Positions 2,796 to 39,869 of a DNA stretch of 43,420 nucleotides are shown here, one piece after another; within the stretch, counting starts at the first letter, position 1; each line of letters starts with the position of its first letter. The DNA comes from Kagunavirus LM02P1, in sequence record OZ035819.1. One strand, 5' to 3'. The translations under genes and the position numbers were made by a program. The notes beneath the pieces were generated by a model. It did no database searches. It was not told the DNA's origin and saw only the letters and a list, made by a program, of their open reading frames with translations.

Positions 2796-3872
2796 ATGCT
2801 ATTAACTTTAGCGCCACAGGGTTTATTTATGAGCTTACTGACATCACTAATCAGCCACCAGATTTGGCTGCAACGCAACGCATCTGGCGAAGTGAAAGAC
2901 CTCGCACCGTTCATTCAGGAGATGCGGGATGAAATCAAACGGCAGGTGCTGTTGTTCGGCGACGACGGGAGAAGCACCGCGCGTCTCAATAAACTGTTAC
3001 GCGACTTAGAAGAAGCACTGACAGGGCTAGCCGGAGACTGGCAAACAAAGCTGACCGAAGACCTTAAGGAACTGGCAGCGTATGAGGCTGAGTGGAATGT
3101 GAAAACACTCACGGCTAACGTCAACGCTGAATTTGTTACCCCTACCGCTGAGCAGGTGTGGTCTGCAGCCGTGTTTCAACCGCTGGCGTTACGCGACAAG
3201 CCAGTTGATTTCACTAAGCTAATGGATGGCTGGGGTGAAACAGAAGTATCGCGACTGGTAACTGGTGTTAAGATGGGTTTCGTTCAAGGCCAAACCACAC
3301 GGCAGATTGTTAAAAATGTCGTTGGCGCTGGCGGACTGGCGGACATCTCTGAGCGCAACGCAGCTACGGTAACCCGCACCGCGCTGTCGCACATATCCAA
3401 CGAAGCACGCAACGAGACGTACCGTCAGAACGACGACATCATCGAGAAATATGAATGGGTATCGACGCTTGACAGCCGTACCAGTACGATTTGCAGAGCC
3501 AGGGACGGAATGACGTGGGAAATCGGTAAGGGGCCGATGCCCCCCGCCCATTTTGGCTGCCGAAGCACCACAGCACCTGTAATCAGTTCAGAATTCGACT
3601 TCCTCGATAAAGACGCAAAACGTGCAGCTAAGGGTGCGGACGGCGGAACTCAGGTAAGCGTGGACACCTCTTACTACGAGTTCCTAAAACAACAACCGGC
3701 ATGGTTTCAGGATGAAGCACTCGGTCCTGTTCGCGGTAAGATTTTCCGCAACAGCGGTATATCGCCGGAAGAGTTTCGCGTAATATCTGTAGATGGTTTC
3801 GGGAATCCGCTTACGCTTAAGCAGATGGCGGAACTCGATAAACGTGTTGCTGATTATCTGAAAGGGGAATAA
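2796..3872 (+). CDS. head morphogenesis protein (Mu F / SPP1 gp7-like minor capsid protein)
   Basis: 358 aa; conserved stretch WVSTLDSRTSTICRARDGMTWEI...PPAHFGCRS typical of this family; follows portal; alternative ATG at 2829. Confidence 0.75.
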   Translation: MLLTLAPQGLFMSLLTSLISHQIWLQRNASGEVKDLAPFIQEMRDEIKRQVLLFGDDGRSTARLNKLLRDLEEALTGLAGDWQTKLTEDLKELAAYEAEWNVKTLTANVNAEFVTPTAEQVWSAAVFQPLALRDKPVDFTKLMDGWGETEVSRLVTGVKMGFVQGQTTRQIVKNVVGAGGLADISERNAATVTRTALSHISNEARNETYRQNDDIIEKYEWVSTLDSRTSTICRARDGMTWEIGKGPMPPAHFGCRSTTAPVISSEFDFLDKDAKRAAKGADGGTQVSVDTSYYEFLKQQPAWFQDEALGPVRGKIFRNSGISPEEFRVISVDGFGNPLTLKQMAELDKRVADYLKGE

Positions 3873-5023: not shown

Positions 5024-5410
5024 ATGAATCTTAAAGCAACTGTCGTAGCTGTAGCATGTTTCATCATCCTTGCCTACGCACACGGCTACTATCAATACCG
5101 CATCGGCTGGAACGAAGGCCGGGTGAATCTCGTTTCGCAGCAACAGCAGAAAGCACAGGCTGAGTTAGCGAAGAAAACACAACGGCAGCAGCAGGACGAA
5201 TCTAAGGCCGCCGCCGCCGATTCCAAAGGCAAGACTGAATCTGAGGTAATCACCCGTGAAGTCGTTAAGTACATTAAAACGCCTGGTCGCAGCGTGTGCA
5301 CTTTCGATGATGCTCGCGTCCTGCTCAAGTCCCGCGCCGTCGCAAACGCCAATTCCATCTCCGGATACGACGATGATACAGCCGCCGTGCAAGCTGGCAC
5401 CGCCAAGTAG
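5024..5410 (+). CDS. Rz: i-spanin (Rz-like inner-membrane spanin subunit)
   Basis: 128 aa; N-terminal TM helix VVAVACFIILAYA then charged Q/K/A-rich periplasmic region; a lipoprotein ORF overlaps in the +1 frame. Confidence 0.65.
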   Translation: MNLKATVVAVACFIILAYAHGYYQYRIGWNEGRVNLVSQQQQKAQAELAKKTQRQQQDESKAAAADSKGKTESEVITREVVKYIKTPGRSVCTFDDARVLLKSRAVANANSISGYDDDTAAVQAGTAK

Positions 5411-13685: not shown

Positions 13686-13892
13686 TCACTTCTCTTTGAC
13701 ATTCGAGTTGCACGCCCAGATTAAAATAAATACCCACGGCAGCAGAACCCAGCCAAGAAACAGATTAGCCATGAATATCGCTAATTTCGCTTTATGGTCG
13801 CGGAAATATGCAACCAGAAACGGCGCGAAATAAGCGAGCAGTGCAAACAGAATTAAGGAAACTGGTAAACTTGACATTTTAAACCCCTTCAT
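13686..13892 (-). CDS. small 2-TM membrane protein, superinfection-immunity (Imm)-like
   Basis: 68 aa; two hydrophobic helices around YFAPFLVAYFRDHKAKLAIFMANLFLGWVLLPWVFILIWA, matching the Imm-type signature as I recall it; first gene after promoter. Confidence 0.5.
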   Translation of the reverse strand: MKGFKMSSLPVSLILFALLAYFAPFLVAYFRDHKAKLAIFMANLFLGWVLLPWVFILIWACNSNVKEK

Positions 13893-25412: not shown

Positions 25413-25667
25413 TTAGTTAGATAATTCGCCTTGAACTTGCTTAATAAGTTCTCTGGCCGTTGTGAAGTCTACGGACAGCCCTTTAGCGACGTCTTCCGCA
25501 AGCACCTTGTGACCAACTGACCCGAAGCCCAGGATACGGTTTACTTCCGAAACCTTCATAGACCATGAGTAATTAACTGACGCCCCTGTGTATTTACCGA
25601 TACGAACAGATGAATCGATTGAACCAATAATCATGGTGTTTACTGACAGTTGAAGTTCGATAGCCAT
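25413..25667 (-). CDS. hypothetical protein (84 aa)
   Basis: ATG at 25667 downstream of promoter 25702-25730. Confidence 0.4.
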   Translation of the reverse strand: MAIELQLSVNTMIIGSIDSSVRIGKYTGASVNYSWSMKVSEVNRILGFGSVGHKVLAEDVAKGLSVDFTTARELIKQVQGELSN

Positions 25668-25668
25668 T

Positions 25669-25983
25669 TTATAATTCCTTATATTGTTGGGGTATGTGCT
25701 TACTATAATAGTCTGCTATTAGGGTGTCAATCTGTTTTATCGAACCAACGACAAAAACATTTGCGCCACGTTTGCGCATCCGCTCATGCTCACGTAGCTG
25801 GTGGGGGTCAGGCTTCGTGTTTTCGTCTTTCTTAACCTCGACGAACCAGACGACGCCGCCGGGGAGAATTGCCAGCAGGTCGGGGGCGCCGGAACGCCCC
25901 TCGTAGGAAAGTTTACGAACGAGGCCACCAAGGGCCTCGAATCGCTCCTTTGCATATTTCTGTATTTTGCCTTCCGGGGTCAT
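25669..25983 (-). CDS. VRR-NUC domain nuclease (PD-(D/E)XK fold)
   Basis: Motif GAPDLLAILPGGVVWFVEVK (D...E-V-K core); ATG at 25983 preferred over upstream TTG at 25998. Confidence 0.65.
   Translation of the reverse strand: MTPEGKIQKYAKERFEALGGLVRKLSYEGRSGAPDLLAILPGGVVWFVEVKKDENTKPDPHQLREHERMRKRGANVFVVGSIKQIDTLIADYYSKHIPQQYKEL
25702..25730 (-). promoter_or_regulatory. sigma70-type promoter TTGACA-N17-TATAGT inside the 3' end of the VRR-NUC gene
   Basis: Near-consensus hexamers read on minus strand; would drive 25413..25667 and downstream genes. Confidence 0.5.
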
Positions 25984-26132
25984 GAGCGCAGAACCCAAGT
26001 AAGGAAAGCCCCGCCCAGAACGGCAACACCGACAAAATTAAAGAACAGGCCATAGCAGAACATCGCGGCTATTCCCGCACCGAGTAGAAGTGCGAGCATG
26101 GTTACTATCGTCCAAAATACAAGCATTGTCAT
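25980..26132 (-). CDS. small membrane protein (50 aa, 2 predicted TM)
   Basis: ATG at 26132 with GGAGG RBS; hydrophobic throughout; stop overlaps VRR-NUC start. Confidence 0.35.
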   Translation of the reverse strand: MTMLVFWTIVTMLALLLGAGIAAMFCYGLFFNFVGVAVLGGAFLTWVLRS

Positions 26133-26214
26133 AATACGCACTCCTCCCGTTTCGTATGCTCAATCCCACAGCGCGGACAGATTCGACAGTCTTCTTCATA
26201 GAACCAGTAAATTT

Positions 26215-26346
26215 TCATTCCAGCACCCACAGATAAATTGCGATGAACATGCCCAGTACGGCGGCCATCATGCTGTATTGACCCTCGTGGCAGTAGACAC
26301 CGGCGGCGAATCCCGCCAGTACCGCGATAATAAGTTTACTTAGCAT
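26215..26346 (-). CDS. small membrane protein (43 aa)
   Basis: ATG at 26346 overlapping the 3' end of the polymerase gene; hydrophobic. Confidence 0.3.
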   Translation of the reverse strand: MLSKLIIAVLAGFAAGVYCHEGQYSMMAAVLGMFIAIYLWVLE

Positions 26347-28609
26347 AGCGGTACACCTCTTCCCCAGCCCATGTTAACGGGAACCCTTCAGCCCATTCAG
26401 GTAATGCGCATAGCAGGTCACCCATCTCTTTAACCGTGTACTCCGGCGTATCTGGCGTTTCAGCCACACATTCGTCGTGTACGTGGAGCACAATCGGGTA
26501 GCCCGCCGCCTCGACCGTCAGGAGTCCGTTAACTAGTAAGTCACGGCACAACGCCTGGATGATGTTTTCACACAATTTTCCGCCGTGGGTGTACAAAGTT
26601 GTCCACTGGCGGGTGGTCTGATTCTCACCCTGGTACTTGATGCGGACGTTAGTAGTGACACGCCCATCCTCGTCAGTTTCTTTAGTAACGCTCAGACCTA
26701 TGCCGGGGTATGACATGATGCGCCCCGACGGCAGTTCCACGCACAACCACCAACCCGGCACAAAGTTACCCTGTCTGTCTTTCTCTTTAGTACGCCAGAT
26801 GCGGATGGCTCTGTCGCCGTTAAGGCGTACTCGGGCCCCCGCCCAAAACTCTCGTCCCGGATTTCTAATGGCGGCTATCACCGAATCCTTAAGGTCATTC
26901 CAGAATTTCACTGTTTCCGGATGGGCTTCCCGCCACATGCGCTTAATGGCGTCACAGGTGCGCCAGACTTCTTTAGGCAGCACATAAGAGGCCCGTTCAT
27001 CTTTTTTACCAGGCTTTGGCGGGCGTTTAGCCTCCTGAATTCTGGCCCATTCGTAGCCACGGGCGGTAGCCGCCCAAATGTGGTCGGGGAACGTGCCCCG
27101 CATTGTCTCTGTCATTTTAAAGAGGTCCAGCCCGTAAGTTTTAGCCATAGTCATAAAAGCCCCTACGCCCCCCTCGTAGCCGAGGCCGAGTTCGCAACAT
27201 TTCCCGACCTGACGTAGGTCCTTACGGGTGGCTTTTAGTTCTACGGGGTCCATGCCGAACATCTTACCAGCTGTGGCGCAATAGATATCAATCCCCGCGC
27301 GGAACGTCTCAAGGGCGGACGTCTCCCCCGCCGTCCAGGCTAGCCCGCGCCCTTCCACGTTTGAGTAGTCGGCAACGAGCAACTTATTACCTTTTTCCGG
27401 GATGATGCAACTGCGGACAGTCGAGGCCGTTAGTTTAGACACATCGAAACGGCGATGCGCCCGGCCCTTTAAAAGCAAATTGATGCCAAATGATAGCGGG
27501 TTAAGCCTGCGGTTCCAGTCTTCGTCGGACTCCCACGGCTGGCGCACAAGTTTCTTTTCCTCGTTAGTCGGGTCGTCGTGGTAGTACCCGCGCGACAGGT
27601 TCTGCGGTTGGAACCCTTTACCCGCAAATCGTAAAGTGCGCTTTGCCCCACCGTACTGGATGCAACCGCGGCGGCGGCCGTCTTTGGACCGTCCTAGCAG
27701 GAGCGGTTTGTATTTTGTCGACGCCGTGGAGGCCGCGCCGAGGCGCATCTCAATGATTGTGCGCGCATCGTCAGGTAAGTCGTCGTCCTCTAGCAAACCT
27801 TCGAGCGTTGCTTTCTGTGCATTATAGATATTGTAGGCCGGTGCCAGCTCCCGAAGGATTGGCAGGAAGTCTTTACCCGTTAGCTTCCCGCCAAATTTAG
27901 CCCTGGCCTCGTTTTTTAGCTCTTGCTTGTGGCGTTCAACTGCTGCTACCGCCGCCTCAGCAAGAGCCGCATCAACAAAGAAGCCTCGGTCGTTGATTAA
28001 CTGGTCAAGTTCAAGTACACGGTCCTCGAAATCGGAGTTACCCCAACGTGGCAGCTTATGGAAGACTTCACGCATCGCTGTGATGTCGCTCACGGCGTAC
28101 TTGATGAACAGCGCCCACTCGTCCGGGTGCGTCTCCGCGGTGTAGCGGCGGATTTTGTAGTTCTTCGGCGTCGGTTTAGAAAAACGCTGAATCAGCGCCT
28201 TACCGCGTTTGTCTTTCGCATTGTCCGCAGATACGCCCAACACTTCGCACAATGCGTCAAGTGAACCCGGCAGCGCGTGACGAAACGCCCAAATCATCGT
28301 ATCAATGGTGTTGCTTACCGGAATATCAAAGCCCCAGCAGTGCTTCATGATGAGTCTGTCGAACATTGAGCCGTTGTGCCACACCATCTTAATGCGACTG
28401 TTAGGCTTAACCAGACGGCGTAACGCGCGGTGCAAATCCCCCGGCATGTCGCTGCCGTTGGTGCAATCCCACACCTGCACAGGCTCGTCGTCAAAAGCGT
28501 ATGTACAGATAAGGACTTCTGTGGTTGGGTGTTCGGCGTAAGCGTAGGAGCCGACTTTCTTTAAATCGGCTTCGGAGAATGTTTCAAAGTCAAGGTATAA
28601 GTAGCTCAT
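26336..28609 (-). CDS. family A DNA polymerase with 3'-5' exonuclease domain
   Basis: Exo I YLDFETFS; Pol motif A LLVADYSNVEGR, motif B RQVGKCCELGLGYEGG, motif C VLHVHDE; ATG at 28609 with AGGAAA RBS preferred over TTG at 28663. Confidence 0.85.
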   Translation of the reverse strand: MSYLYLDFETFSEADLKKVGSYAYAEHPTTEVLICTYAFDDEPVQVWDCTNGSDMPGDLHRALRRLVKPNSRIKMVWHNGSMFDRLIMKHCWGFDIPVSNTIDTMIWAFRHALPGSLDALCEVLGVSADNAKDKRGKALIQRFSKPTPKNYKIRRYTAETHPDEWALFIKYAVSDITAMREVFHKLPRWGNSDFEDRVLELDQLINDRGFFVDAALAEAAVAAVERHKQELKNEARAKFGGKLTGKDFLPILRELAPAYNIYNAQKATLEGLLEDDDLPDDARTIIEMRLGAASTASTKYKPLLLGRSKDGRRRGCIQYGGAKRTLRFAGKGFQPQNLSRGYYHDDPTNEEKKLVRQPWESDEDWNRRLNPLSFGINLLLKGRAHRRFDVSKLTASTVRSCIIPEKGNKLLVADYSNVEGRGLAWTAGETSALETFRAGIDIYCATAGKMFGMDPVELKATRKDLRQVGKCCELGLGYEGGVGAFMTMAKTYGLDLFKMTETMRGTFPDHIWAATARGYEWARIQEAKRPPKPGKKDERASYVLPKEVWRTCDAIKRMWREAHPETVKFWNDLKDSVIAAIRNPGREFWAGARVRLNGDRAIRIWRTKEKDRQGNFVPGWWLCVELPSGRIMSYPGIGLSVTKETDEDGRVTTNVRIKYQGENQTTRQWTTLYTHGGKLCENIIQALCRDLLVNGLLTVEAAGYPIVLHVHDECVAETPDTPEYTVKEMGDLLCALPEWAEGFPLTWAGEEVYRYAK

Positions 28610-28761
28610 TTCTTTTTCCTTAAATCTAGTGCCTTCGTTTCGCTGAGTCTTATTTTCATACAATCACGGCAAATCCACACATGCCGGTATCCGGCCCGGT
28701 ACTTATCCGCGTACCACGGAAGAGGTTTCATATAGCGATAAACGTGCTTACAGAAAAACAT
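28606..28761 (-). CDS. small Cys/His-containing protein (51 aa)
   Basis: ATG at 28761; CKH...CRDC; stop TGA overlaps the polymerase ATG (ATGA coupling); coordinates checked by hand translation. Confidence 0.3.
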   Translation of the reverse strand: MFFCKHVYRYMKPLPWYADKYRAGYRHVWICRDCMKIRLSETKALDLRKKK

Positions 28762-29499: not shown

Positions 29500-29528
29500 A
29501 ATATAATAGCTAACTATTCAGGTGTCAA
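29500..29528 (-). promoter_or_regulatory. sigma70-type promoter TTGACA-N17-TATATT for SSB gene
   Basis: Near-consensus hexamers read on minus strand, ~50 nt upstream of the ATG at 29447. Confidence 0.6.
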
Positions 29529-29791
29529 CCCTTCCATCCAGTTATTTTCTCAACTATCAATACGTATTCGAAAGGCCACTCCAAATTCTGCACCCATTTA
29601 ATTTCCTTCGTCTGGTCCAGTTGCTCGGGGTCTACCGTTTCATACTTAATCGCAACGTAGACCGTTAGTGGAAGAAGGATAATTAGAAGCGGCACTAACA
29701 TTGCCCAGTAACAAACAAATGCCACAAACCCGCCAAATACCCTGAACGTTTTACGAATCATTTCAAATCCTCCTCTGTTACCCGATTCCAC
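29525..29791 (-). CDS. small membrane protein
   Basis: Hydrophobic segment FVAFVCYWAMLVPLLIILLPLTVYVAI; start uncertain (overlaps nuclease gene end). Confidence 0.35.
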   Translation of the reverse strand: MESGNRGGFEMIRKTFRVFGGFVAFVCYWAMLVPLLIILLPLTVYVAIKYETVDPEQLDQTKEIKWVQNLEWPFEYVLIVEKITGWKG

Positions 29792-39295: not shown

Positions 39296-39604
39296 TTGGA
39301 TAAATTTACTGAAACTGTGACAGGCTGGCTTCTCGCTGCCGCGCTAGCCGGAGGGGTTATCGGACTACGGCAACATAAGTCCGTTATTTCTGGGCCTATA
39401 GACGGCTTCTGCTTTATTGCAACTGGCTTCACTTGTGCCGTGTTTGGTGCACCTCTCGCGGCTCAATGGTTTGGCATTACGGGCGACCGTGAAATCGCAG
39501 GCCTGGGCTTCATTATCGCTATTCTCTGGATGCCTATCTATTCCCGCCTCTCTGGTATTGTTGCCGGAGAATATATCGCACGTCGAGGAGGCCCAGATGA
39601 ATGA
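39296..39604 (+). CDS. holin
   Basis: 102 aa, three hydrophobic helices, charged C-terminus; immediately upstream of lysozyme. Confidence 0.6.
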   Translation: MDKFTETVTGWLLAAALAGGVIGLRQHKSVISGPIDGFCFIATGFTCAVFGAPLAAQWFGITGDREIAGLGFIIAILWMPIYSRLSGIVAGEYIARRGGPDE

Positions 39605-39869
39605 GTTATTCTGGTTCGGCGGTATGCTGGCAATCGGAGGCGCATCGCTGTTTAATGTATATCATCCCAGCGTTGACGACGGGCTATTTGGCCGGGTGCT
39701 CTATATCCTGACCGCTATTGTCTGCGCCGCCGGGTGTATCCACCTGTTACAGGGCAGCATGTCACCTACGCTGCCTGAGACATTAATCACATTAGTTGCG
39801 CTGCGTCAGATTCGTCATGCGTGGCTGTCATACGGAGGATATAAGCGTGTCTCGAAATATTTCAGATAA
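39597..39869 (+). CDS. small membrane protein (second holin-like / lysis regulator, putative)
   Basis: ATG at 39597 with RBS GGAGG, overlapping holin stop (ATGAATGA); two hydrophobic segments. Confidence 0.45.
   Translation: MNELFWFGGMLAIGGASLFNVYHPSVDDGLFGRVLYILTAIVCAAGCIHLLQGSMSPTLPETLITLVALRQIRHAWLSYGGYKRVSKYFR

Follow-up and report, generated by a model that had tools for sequence, protein, structure and literature searches.

The interval between the DNA polymerase and VRR-NUC genes of Kagunavirus LM02P1 raises the question of how many genes it contains, whether they are genuine, and what their products do. The window that was analysed is a 43,420-nt stretch of DNA (sequence record OZ035819.1), which has 95% nucleotide identity to Escherichia phage BUCT789 and belongs to a lytic phage of the Kagunavirus type (Guernseyvirinae). 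The original prediction was that the gap is filled by two ORFs of 43 and 50 codons, and both of them were found on the minus strand. The gap is not filled by these two ORFs, because positions 26133..26214 belong to a third, overlooked ORF of 29 codons. Hence, the interval contains three real micro-genes, rather than two, which we refer to as A43, B29, and C50. The features of the locus are listed below.

29500..29528, minus strand: candidate sigma-70 promoter, TTGACA-17-TATATT, 11/12 match (predicted by consensus scan)
26336..28609, minus strand: family-A DNA polymerase (Pfam DNA_pol_A and 3′-5′ exonuclease domains)
26354..26359, minus strand: SD-like GAGGTG, 7 nt 5′ of the A43 ATG, within the polymerase CDS (sequence reading)
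26215..26346, minus strand: A43, predicted 43-aa micro membrane protein, MLSKLIIAVLAGFAAGVYCHEGQYSMMAAVLGMFIAIYLWVLE (phrog_10404, dN/dS, AF2)
26129..26218, minus strand: B29, 29-aa Cys-rich soluble micro-protein, MKIYWFYEEDCRICPRCGIEHTKREECVL (phrog_38225, dN/dS)
26141..26148, minus strand: strong Shine-Dalgarno GGGAGGAG, 8 nt 5′ of the C50 ATG, within the B29 CDS (sequence reading)
25980..26132, minus strand: C50, extremely hydrophobic predicted 50-aa micro membrane protein, MTMLVFWTIVTMLALLLGAGIAAMFCYGLFFNFVGVAVLGGAFLTWVLRS (phrog_14925, dN/dS)
25669..25983, minus strand: VRR-NUC/Holliday-junction-resolvase-like nuclease, ATG start at 25983 (phrog_93, phrog_5702)

The polymerase, which is annotated as DNA polymerase I in BUCT789, SZH-1, and Bas71, likely starts at the ATG at 28609, giving a 757-aa protein that matches the annotation of the relatives, while its longest ORF begins upstream, with a TTG at 28663. 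The nuclease is annotated in the relatives as a 315-nt VRR-NUC domain protein. The overlaps of the outer two ORFs with both neighbors, which were part of the original prediction, were confirmed: the polymerase stop and A43 overlap by 11 nt, and the C50 stop and the VRR-NUC ATG share a 4-nt ATGA (25980..25983). The A43 stop and B29 start (26215..26218), as well as the B29 stop and C50 start (26129..26132), also meet in ATGA overlaps. Because all four junctions from the polymerase to VRR-NUC overlap, three of them by ATGA, translational coupling is probable. The GGAGG ribosome binding site previously noticed for one of the ORFs was located at 26143..26147, 10 nt 5′ of the C50 ATG and within the longer Shine-Dalgarno sequence listed above. 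These data suggest that A43, B29, and C50 are probably translated by coupling, using the stop/start overlaps together with the own SD motifs of A43 and C50. The candidate sigma-70 promoter heads the leftward replication operon that holds the polymerase and the micro-genes. The consensus scan of the micro-genes themselves gave no promoter match of 11/12 grade and no convincing terminator, and returned, as weak candidates, one promoter-like match of 9/12 (26132..26104) and, within C50, one terminator-like stem (26026..26011). The three micro-genes are thus co-transcribed with the replication genes, from an operon promoter that is a candidate. A Kagunavirus RNA-seq study, which annotates only 57 genes, did not resolve them (PMC12645636).

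The small size of the three ORFs, and the fact that they have no homology beyond their phage clade, could suggest that they are untranslated chance ORFs. In six frames of the 43.4-kb window, A43 and C50 were the sole ATG-initiated ORFs of at least 40 aa with a GRAVY value of at least 1.3, while 100 Markov shuffles produced a mean of 0.02 and a maximum of one such ORF. The in-frame dN/dS values were 0.22 for A43, 0.15 for B29, and 0.20 for C50, similar to the value of 0.23 for VRR-NUC, while off-frame values were 0.8-2.2 overall and 1.0-1.9 for A43. Internal stops were absent from all 28 A43 loci and all 17 C50 loci. The SD-like motifs 5′ of A43 and C50 were preserved across all genomic contexts examined. 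Before A43, GAGG or GGAG was kept at unchanged spacing even where the polymerase 3′ end was only ~70% identical, and GAGGGG, GGAGGAG, or GCGGAG was retained upstream of C50 in all contexts. Where A43 has been lost, by recombination at an 8-nt repeat, TGATTATC, the start codon and SD of A43 are retained and joined in frame to B29. The comparison to PHROG families showed that A43 matches phrog_10404 over its full length (1-43 of 43 positions, E 8.2e-31), C50 matches phrog_14925 also over its full length (1-50 of 50 positions, E 4.3e-32), and residues 1-28 of B29 align to positions 5-32 of 36 in phrog_38225 (E 1.2e-20). All three micro-genes are present as "hypothetical protein" CDSs in BUCT789, SZH-1, and Bas71, while in LSPA1 only A43 and C50 are annotated.

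The comparative data, with the observed number of hydrophobic ORFs, frame-specific purifying selection, uninterrupted frames, conserved SD motifs, PHROG matches, and GenBank annotations of relatives, already refute the explanation by chance ORFs, to which we give next to no credence. Both translation signals and conservation of the reading frames were found, in agreement with the view that the ORFs are genuine genes, and the dN/dS comparison shows all three to be under purifying selection. Their description as unannotated was right for the ORF track used in the original prediction, where the ORF-length cutoff concealed them, but not for the records of relatives, in which they are already annotated CDSs. 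A43, B29, and C50 are therefore already known as PHROG families and annotated CDSs of relatives, and the window copies are ordinary members, which share the same position and show no substantive difference from these Jerseyvirus/Kagunavirus hypothetical proteins. A 53-aa ORF on the same strand (26038..26199, minus strand), which overlaps B29 and C50, was rejected, as relatives either lack it or have it shortened to 21-41 aa, and as off-frame dN/dS was 0.8-2.2. On the opposite strand, an 81-aa ORF is located at 26098..26343 (plus strand).

The near-total hydrophobicity claimed for the two outer ORFs was borne out by GRAVY values of 1.40 for A43 and 1.78 for C50. A43 contains two 19-residue Kyte-Doolittle windows of at least 1.6, and its AF2 model (pLDDT 91) consists of a helix at residues 2-18, a loop at 19-22, and a second helix at 23-42. 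It is a predicted two-helix membrane hairpin, with a conserved polar loop YCHEGQY and a G12xxxG16 motif. C50 is predicted to be a membrane peptide that is nearly all apolar and has either one TM segment or two. Its alignment contains invariant G18, G20, and G40 and a central hinge region, CYG...K/Q/N32, in which residue 32 is the sole polar position, and natural deletions of 3 and 5 residues are confined to positions 25-36. The assignment of both as membrane proteins by TM prediction was supported for A43 by the hairpin model, while the AF2 model of C50 was a single 48-residue helix (2-49), whose pLDDT falls at residues 21-40. The resemblance of LAGFAAGVYC to LGAGIAAMFC suggested that A43 and C50 could be paralogs, which was rejected because the hhalign probability was 0.9%. 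A lipoprotein reading was also rejected, as no lipobox precedes either cysteine (AMF-C, GVY-C; sequence reading). In B29, C11, C14, C17, H21, and C27 are nearly invariant, and C14-P-R-C17-G fits a CPxCG knuckle, while the best match to Pfam zinc-finger models had an E value of 0.19, which is below significance.

To place the micro-genes among related phages, their distribution was compared. The A43, B29, and C50 families were found solely in Jersey/Kaguna-type phages. B29 was the most widespread (444 phage-collection records), followed by A43 (223) and C50 (120). Among the tblastn matches listed, all three lay under or beside DNA polymerase and VRR-NUC annotations, the fetched loci repeated the gene order of the window around these two genes, and the window copies were 91-100% identical to their nearest relatives. 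A43 was kept in 103/103 Escherichia records and 10/10 Kagunavirus records. All four combinations of presence and absence of A43 and C50 were observed. Among 35 loci bearing B29, seven had no A43, 18 had no C50, and five had neither, and the tree of the polymerase 3′ end implied at least three changes for the presence of A43 and at least seven for that of C50. In other loci the slot is occupied by single-TM peptides of 23-25 aa, a soluble ORF of 64 aa, HNH_3 endonucleases, or an N6/N4 methylase, while in more distant relatives the polymerase and VRR-NUC overlap directly. Hence, the junction between the polymerase and VRR-NUC is a cassette-like hotspot of accessory genes, and the A43 and C50 families are lineage-restricted and kept under purifying selection, yet closely related phages have acquired and lost them again and again. 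The fact that one or both are missing from many close relatives, together with their location in the hotspot, indicates that they are dispensable accessories and not core replication or lysis genes.

The distribution could also be explained if A43 and C50 were near-neutral passengers or young lineage-specific ORFs, which persist in a hotspot of recombination and homing endonucleases because they keep the polymerase and the downstream genes spaced or translationally coupled, and which have no specific activity of their own. This would be consistent with their status as orphan families of one phage clade, with the tolerance of the slot for almost any content, even none, and with the maintenance of the coupling junctions regardless of the insert. 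On the other hand, the dN/dS values of ~0.2 and the strong conservation of the A43 loop and of the C50 glycines point to selection on the amino acid sequence, beyond that for a mere open frame, and A43 is retained in every Escherichia and Kagunavirus record. We thus consider the passenger explanation improbable.

Another explanation is that A43 and/or C50, perhaps with the putative zinc-knuckle protein B29, serve as membrane organizers of DNA replication, which tether the polymerase/nuclease machinery or the replicating DNA. The known examples of such proteins are p1 and p16.7 of phage phi29, which are membrane-anchored, carry soluble domains of considerable size that bind DNA or protein, and are important for efficient replication. 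The resemblance is that these are also membrane proteins within a phage replication module, and the idea would fit the embedding of the micro-genes between the polymerase and the nuclease, their coupling to both neighbors by stop/start overlaps, and the nearly universal presence of B29 in the clade. However, nearly the whole length of A43 and C50 is predicted to be transmembrane, which leaves essentially no soluble domain for binding DNA or protein, and a Pfam scan detected no homology to p1 or p16.7. Moreover, the presence of A43 is independent of that of C50, neither of them follows that of B29, and some of the B29 loci lack one or both, which indicates that replication does not need them. 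The role in organizing replication therefore seems to have a small chance of being correct.

The best explanation, for which we estimate a probability of about 40%, is that the locus contains three coupled micro-genes, of which A43 and C50 are dispensable inner-membrane accessories acting on an envelope target. Both peptides would enter the inner membrane of the host while the phage replicates, at low levels set by coupling to the polymerase, and could act on an envelope component of the host or of an incoming phage by packing of TM helices, possibly via GxxxG and Gly/Ala-rich faces. The infected cell would then be protected, for example because the entry of superinfecting DNA is blocked or a membrane-based host defense is neutralized. 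Such cell protection is the most plausible effect of A43 and C50, and is favored over a function in lysis. The window already contains an Imm_superinfect-family gene (PF14373) at 13686..13892, minus strand (48 bits versus a gathering cutoff of 27.9), and hence an exclusion role of A43 and C50 could be redundant.

The rival role in lysis timing or depolarization, as holin, antiholin, pinholin-like, or type-I-toxin-like factors, supposes that Gly/Ala-rich helices oligomerize and permeabilize or depolarize the inner membrane, either to tune the lysis clock or to shut off the host. The size and composition of A43 and C50 resemble those of small pore formers, GxxxG and Gly-rich faces are present, and A43 has a very weak similarity to the NCBIfam holin_5 model (14.3 bits, E 0.037). 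This score is far below the 100-bit cutoff of the model, and Pfam searches (E ≤ 1) gave no holin, Hok, or Imm_superinfect match for A43 or C50. In addition, the window encodes its holin pair at about 39296..39869 and its spanin at 5024..5410, away from the micro-genes, and in the relative Bas71 the annotated endolysin adjoins the holins. A43 and C50 are located outside the lysis cassette, in the replication operon and translationally coupled to the polymerase, a stage at which depolarization would hurt replication, and close relatives that do not have them still lyse. We therefore regard a lysis or depolarization role as unlikely.

The searches for related proteins agree with the restriction of these families to one phage group. 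The micro-proteins had no match among type I toxin and Hok/Gef-like models (Pfam, NCBIfam, E ≤ 1), nothing significant in the Pfam and NCBIfam scans, and zero families at E ≤ 1 among the PADLOC-DB defense models. When C50 and A43 were used in word-indexed searches of 5.8 billion proteins, nearly all matches were close relatives (at least 76% identical), of which those on long contigs came from phage contigs of ~40-45 kb, and the few weaker A43 matches were partial or fused fragments. When 1.84 billion representatives were searched exhaustively with an HMM of A43, the matches were limited to its own cluster, fragments, and two long, repetitive proteins that are spurious. No copy of the whole 367-nt interval was present in 5,426 complete E. 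coli genomes, nor was a copy of C50 present in 72,556 plasmids. The fold search with A43 against viral structures gave no match with E < 0.7 and detected generic two-helix hairpins only. We found no functional study of A43, B29, or C50 in the literature, and an accessory-gene screen preprint does not mention the phage group of this window (10.1101/2023.04.06.535777).

The preferred reading, that A43 and C50 are envelope-directed accessories, can be compared with several known systems. The T4 proteins Imm and Sp are involved in superinfection exclusion, and Ac, of about 50 aa, in acridine sensitivity. They resemble A43 and C50, whose membrane location is predicted, as tiny inner-membrane phage proteins that are expressed before lysis and are dispensable in the laboratory. 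Structurally, the A43 hairpin model has a generic analog in the T4-like Ac of Salmonella phage Melville (47 aa; TM-score 0.86/0.79), which shows no sequence relationship to A43 (Foldseek E = 2.0, 17% identity). The Imm_superinfect-family gene of the window is another ORF. In T7, the small accessory genes 5.3-5.9, which are non-essential and host-directed, separate gene 5 (DNA polymerase) from gene 6 (exonuclease). The arrangement is similar, as very small genes lie just 3′ of a phage polymerase and 5′ of a nuclease in one transcription unit. However, the T7 proteins are soluble, with gp5.5 binding H-NS and gp5.9 inhibiting RecBCD, while here two of the three micro-proteins are predicted membrane peptides, and there is no homology. 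Among bacterial proteins, AcrZ, MgrB, and MgtS (30-50 aa) regulate larger membrane proteins via TM-TM contacts, while the type I toxins Hok and TisB act via oligomeric pores. These proteins share the size class of A43 and C50 and may provide a mechanistic template for the proposed role, although Pfam and NCBIfam scans showed no homology.

The main value of these data is that they correct an annotation blind spot, as a length cutoff concealed three genes that are already in the public records of relatives. The locus is also a clean natural experiment, in which coliphages of the therapeutic type and Salmonella phages, although close relatives, either have or lack 43-aa and 50-aa predicted membrane peptides in one precisely defined, coupled slot, so that isogenic comparisons could cheaply reveal the function of a micro membrane protein. 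This has a wider bearing, since thousands of small hydrophobic phage ORFs share the same functional question. It is conceivable, if doubtful, that the junction between the polymerase and VRR-NUC in Guernseyvirinae is a dedicated cassette site, where A43, C50, and the 23-25-aa TM peptides are interchangeable membrane effectors, each with a different inner-membrane or defense target. If this were true, these peptides would represent a new class of micro-protein exclusion or counter-defense factors, and the presence or absence of individual effectors would help to set the host range of Escherichia versus Salmonella phages.

The interval between the family-A DNA polymerase and VRR-NUC genes lies on the minus strand, and the two hydrophobic ORFs predicted there, A43 (43 codons) and C50 (50 codons), were found at exactly the predicted positions. 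The original prediction had these two ORFs filling the gap, but the intervening 82 nt belong to a 29-codon, cysteine-rich ORF, B29, which had been overlooked. The minus-strand gene order is polymerase, A43, B29, C50, VRR-NUC.

Genes at the polymerase/VRR-NUC locus
26336..28609/28663, minus strand: family-A DNA polymerase (Pfam DNA_pol_A and exonuclease domains)
26215..26346, minus strand: A43
26129..26218, minus strand: B29
25980..26132, minus strand: C50
25669..25983, minus strand: VRR-NUC-like nuclease (phrog_93 and phrog_5702)

A43 and the polymerase 3′ end overlap by 11 nt, and the A43 ATG stands 7 nt downstream from GAGGTG (26354..26359). At each of the other three junctions a stop and a start codon share an ATGA: A43/B29 at 26215..26218, B29/C50 at 26129..26132, and C50/VRR-NUC at 25980..25983; the sequence GGGAGGAG (26141..26148) precedes the C50 ATG by 8 nt. 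Because four consecutive junctions overlap, this is, as read from the sequence, a classical translational-coupling arrangement. The longest polymerase ORF has a TTG start (28663, 775 aa), while relatives annotate a 757-aa protein, and the true start is therefore probably the ATG at 28609 (MSYLYLDF...).

A consensus scan predicted a strong promoter-like site at the operon head (TTGACA-17-TATATT, 29528..29500, minus strand); among the micro-genes its only entries were two weak sites within C50, a 9/12 promoter-like match (26132..26104) and a terminator-like stem (26026..26011). The site at 29500..29528 is overlapped by the 3′ end of an 88-aa minus-strand ORF (29525..29791), which has a long hydrophobic segment (residues ~15-53) and no Pfam match, and which could possibly encode another small membrane protein. 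A near-consensus sigma-70 promoter-like site (TTGACA-17-TATAGT, 11/12, 25702..25730, minus strand) was also seen inside the VRR-NUC 3′ end, just upstream of an 84-aa ORF (25413..25667, phrog_11050), with a terminator-like hairpin (25762..25778, minus strand) just upstream of it on the same strand.

The two hydrophobic ORFs exceed what chance would give in the window. A43 (GRAVY 1.40) and C50 (1.78) are the only ATG-ORFs of at least 40 aa in its six frames (43.4 kb) with GRAVY of at least 1.3, and 100 first-order Markov shuffles averaged 0.02 such ORFs, with no shuffle giving more than 1. The three peptides were also located by tblastn among 53 IMG/VR loci, fetched by the polymerase C-terminus, and four annotated GenBank loci.

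In-frame and off-frame dN/dS (summed pairwise Nei-Gojobori, without tree correction)
A43: 28 loci, 24 unique nucleotide sequences; in-frame 0.22, off-frame 1.0 and 1.9
B29: 35 loci, 29 unique nucleotide sequences; in-frame 0.15, off-frame 2.2 and 1.2
C50: 17 loci, 16 unique nucleotide sequences; in-frame 0.20, off-frame 0.8 and 1.6
References: VRR-NUC 0.23; polymerase C-terminus 0.10

No copy of A43, B29 or C50 among the compared loci had an internal stop, and third codon positions hold most of the variable columns. The SD-like motifs upstream of A43 are kept in loci with just ~70% identity at the polymerase 3′ end too, and those upstream of C50 are kept whether B29 or a different gene precedes it. 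Missing translation signals and unconserved frames would have spoken against the ORFs; since both the signals and the conservation were found, it is virtually certain that the micro-genes are real, and their origin as chance ORFs is extremely improbable. The same ratios bear on the reading in which they are near-neutral passengers or spacers serving the coupled junctions, which seems quite improbable. Another frame of the same strand has a 53-aa ORF over B29/C50 (26038..26199, minus strand), which was judged non-coding; it is shortened or missing in most relatives and its frame shows no purifying selection.

The ORFs had been described as unannotated solely because of the first-stage ORF-length cutoff. 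All three are CDSs annotated as "hypothetical protein" in BUCT789, SZH-1 and Bas71, two of the three are annotated in LSPA1, and full-length matches were found to PHROG families of unknown function (A43, phrog_10404; B29, phrog_38225; C50, phrog_14925); one database source labels an A43 homologue "TMhelix containing protein". With public annotation and PHROGs already listing the genes, novelty is low. Pfam, NCBIfam and PADLOC gave nothing significant for the micro-genes; the top match, NCBIfam holin_5, scored 14.3 bits where the cutoff is 100.

The distribution of the genes is narrow. By megablast, 317 phage-collection records match 25600-26800, all of them Jerseyvirus/Kagunavirus-type siphophages of Escherichia/Salmonella (Guernseyvirinae), with Escherichia phage BUCT789 the closest (95.5% identity). 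In tblastn against 50,697 phage records, B29 matched 444, A43 223 and C50 120, from Salmonella, Escherichia, Kagunavirus, Jerseyvirus, Shigella, Klebsiella or Raoultella phages of Jersey/Kaguna type, except for two stray B29 matches (one Pseudomonas and one Proteus record); among the matches listed, the genes lie at the polymerase/VRR-NUC locus. Among 5.8 billion proteins, nearly all matches were close relatives (at least 76% identical), those on long contigs belonged to ~40-45 kb phage contigs, and the few weaker A43 matches were partial or fused fragments. The A43 profile, run exhaustively as an HMM against 1.84 billion cluster representatives, returned no remote relatives. The 5,426 complete E. 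coli genomes searched contained no copies, and the 72,556 plasmids no copy of C50. Paralogy of A43 and C50 was rejected (hhalign probability 0.9%).

A43 is present in 103/103 Escherichia and 10/10 Kagunavirus records that carry B29, and in just 106/324 Salmonella phage records. Its loss has a clear mechanism at the sequence level, namely recombination at an 8-nt direct repeat, TGATTATC, which in Jersey-type loci lies at A43 codons 5-7 and at the B29 start. In a comparison of related loci L019/L034/L013 versus L017, L018, L020, L021, L025, L028 and L031 (~2590-2730 in each), the A43-less loci showed exactly the recombined repeat junction. The result is an in-frame fusion of the A43 start with B29 (MLSKLII-YYFREEDC...), which leaves B29 with the start codon and SD of A43. 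The repeat is absent from the window's own copies, in agreement with all the Escherichia phages having retained A43. In P0169, a 72-aa protein from a metagenomic contig, A43 residues 1-24 run via a shifted frame into B29 (…CHEGQYRHDGRRIVYVSCNLYVGAGMKIYWFYEEDC…), either through a sequencing error or through a natural mutation that disrupts A43 and preserves B29.

The polymerase/VRR-NUC junction is an insertion/accessory hotspot (loci L010, L019, L034, L042-L046, L051, L036, L044, L049, L050, L052, L056, L039, L041, L054 and L055). All loci of the close clade have B29, and A43 and C50 vary independently, with all four combinations seen; under parsimony on a neighbor-joining tree of polymerase 3′ ends, the presence of A43 changed at least 3 times and that of C50 at least 7 times, numbers which recombination may inflate. 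Single-TM peptides of 23-25 aa, MITIIAVLVALLLGAAIFSRIIG and MTMLTFIMVIVAVFLGVAVLCKVTD, replace C50 in L015 (2804..2875) and L027 (2804..2881), and the latter has a C50-like 5′ end, so it may be a C50 allele that has diverged or undergone an internal deletion. A conserved 63-64-aa soluble ORF without a Pfam match (MSNKPFSKKLAALVDMPEWEF...CAGCTHKGVYY...; L005, L012, L013, L016, L029 and L033, ~2804..2998) sits between B29 and C50 or replaces C50. An HNH_3 homing endonuclease is another occupant of the slot after B29, and in L010 an HNH gene lies between the polymerase and A43. Among distant relatives (~60% polymerase identity), some have a direct polymerase/VRR-NUC overlap (gap -1 or -4), and others carry a 78-aa ORF, HExxH-containing proteins of 113-132 aa, a 200-aa Cys-rich protein, or an N6/N4 DNA methylase.

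The AF2 model of A43, made with the family alignment, consists of helix 2-18, loop 19-22 (CHEG) and helix 23-42 (pLDDT 91); no other polar feature of A43 is as conserved as the loop (YCHEGQY), and G12xxxG16 lies in helix 1. Foldseek found only generic hairpin analogues of this model, such as a T4-like Ac protein (E 2.0, TM-score 0.86). C50 was modeled as a single 48-residue helix (pLDDT 90, with a dip at residues 21-40), which as modeled exceeds the length for one membrane span. Its natural 3- and 5-residue deletions all fall within residues 25-36, as does its sole consistently polar position (K/Q/N/R/E32), which weakly suggests a hairpin; G18, G20 and G40 are invariant. Neither protein has a lipobox. 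In B29 (29 aa, MKIYWFYEEDCRICPRCGIEHTKREECVL), C11, C14, C17, H21 and C27 are nearly invariant; the protein has a CPxCG knuckle and is probably a zinc-binding micro-protein.

Any function has to agree with what the genes have been shown to be: they are real and membrane-like, they are coupled to the replication operon, selection acts on them, and they are confined to one lineage and dispensable. They are unlikely to have a core role in lysis, because a holin pair (~39296..39869) and a spanin (5024..5410) are encoded elsewhere in the window, and in Bas71 the annotated endolysin adjoins the holins; a role in lysis timing or depolarization is likewise unlikely. An essential replication role for A43/C50 is ruled out, because several Salmonella phages are without both, and tethering of the replisome to the membrane, modeled on phi29, is a rather improbable reading. 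Small membrane proteins which serve as analogues include T4 Imm, Sp and Ac, and bacterial AcrZ, MgrB and MgtS. By analogy to these, the most plausible mechanism is one in which low, polymerase-coupled levels of the peptides would insert into the inner membrane and would then bind an envelope component by helix-helix contacts, so that the infected cell would be protected or conditioned, via superinfection exclusion or interference with membrane-based defense. We give this functional reading a probability of about 0.4. The phage also has a separate 68-aa two-TM ORF between tail and exonuclease genes (13686..13892, minus strand), an Imm_superinfect-family member (PF14373, 48 bits) and a candidate for its own superinfection-immunity-family gene.

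A literature search found no functional work on the A43, B29 and C50 proteins. The sole Kagunavirus infection transcriptome uses a 57-gene annotation in which the micro-genes are not resolved, and the polymerase region is among the genes with a late peak in its sampling scheme (PMC12645636). Hence, the observation behind the original prediction is real though incomplete, and its interpretation, which named superinfection exclusion, lysis timing or membrane depolarization, is reasonable but generic. The locus would be a convenient natural system for probing the role of phage micro membrane proteins.
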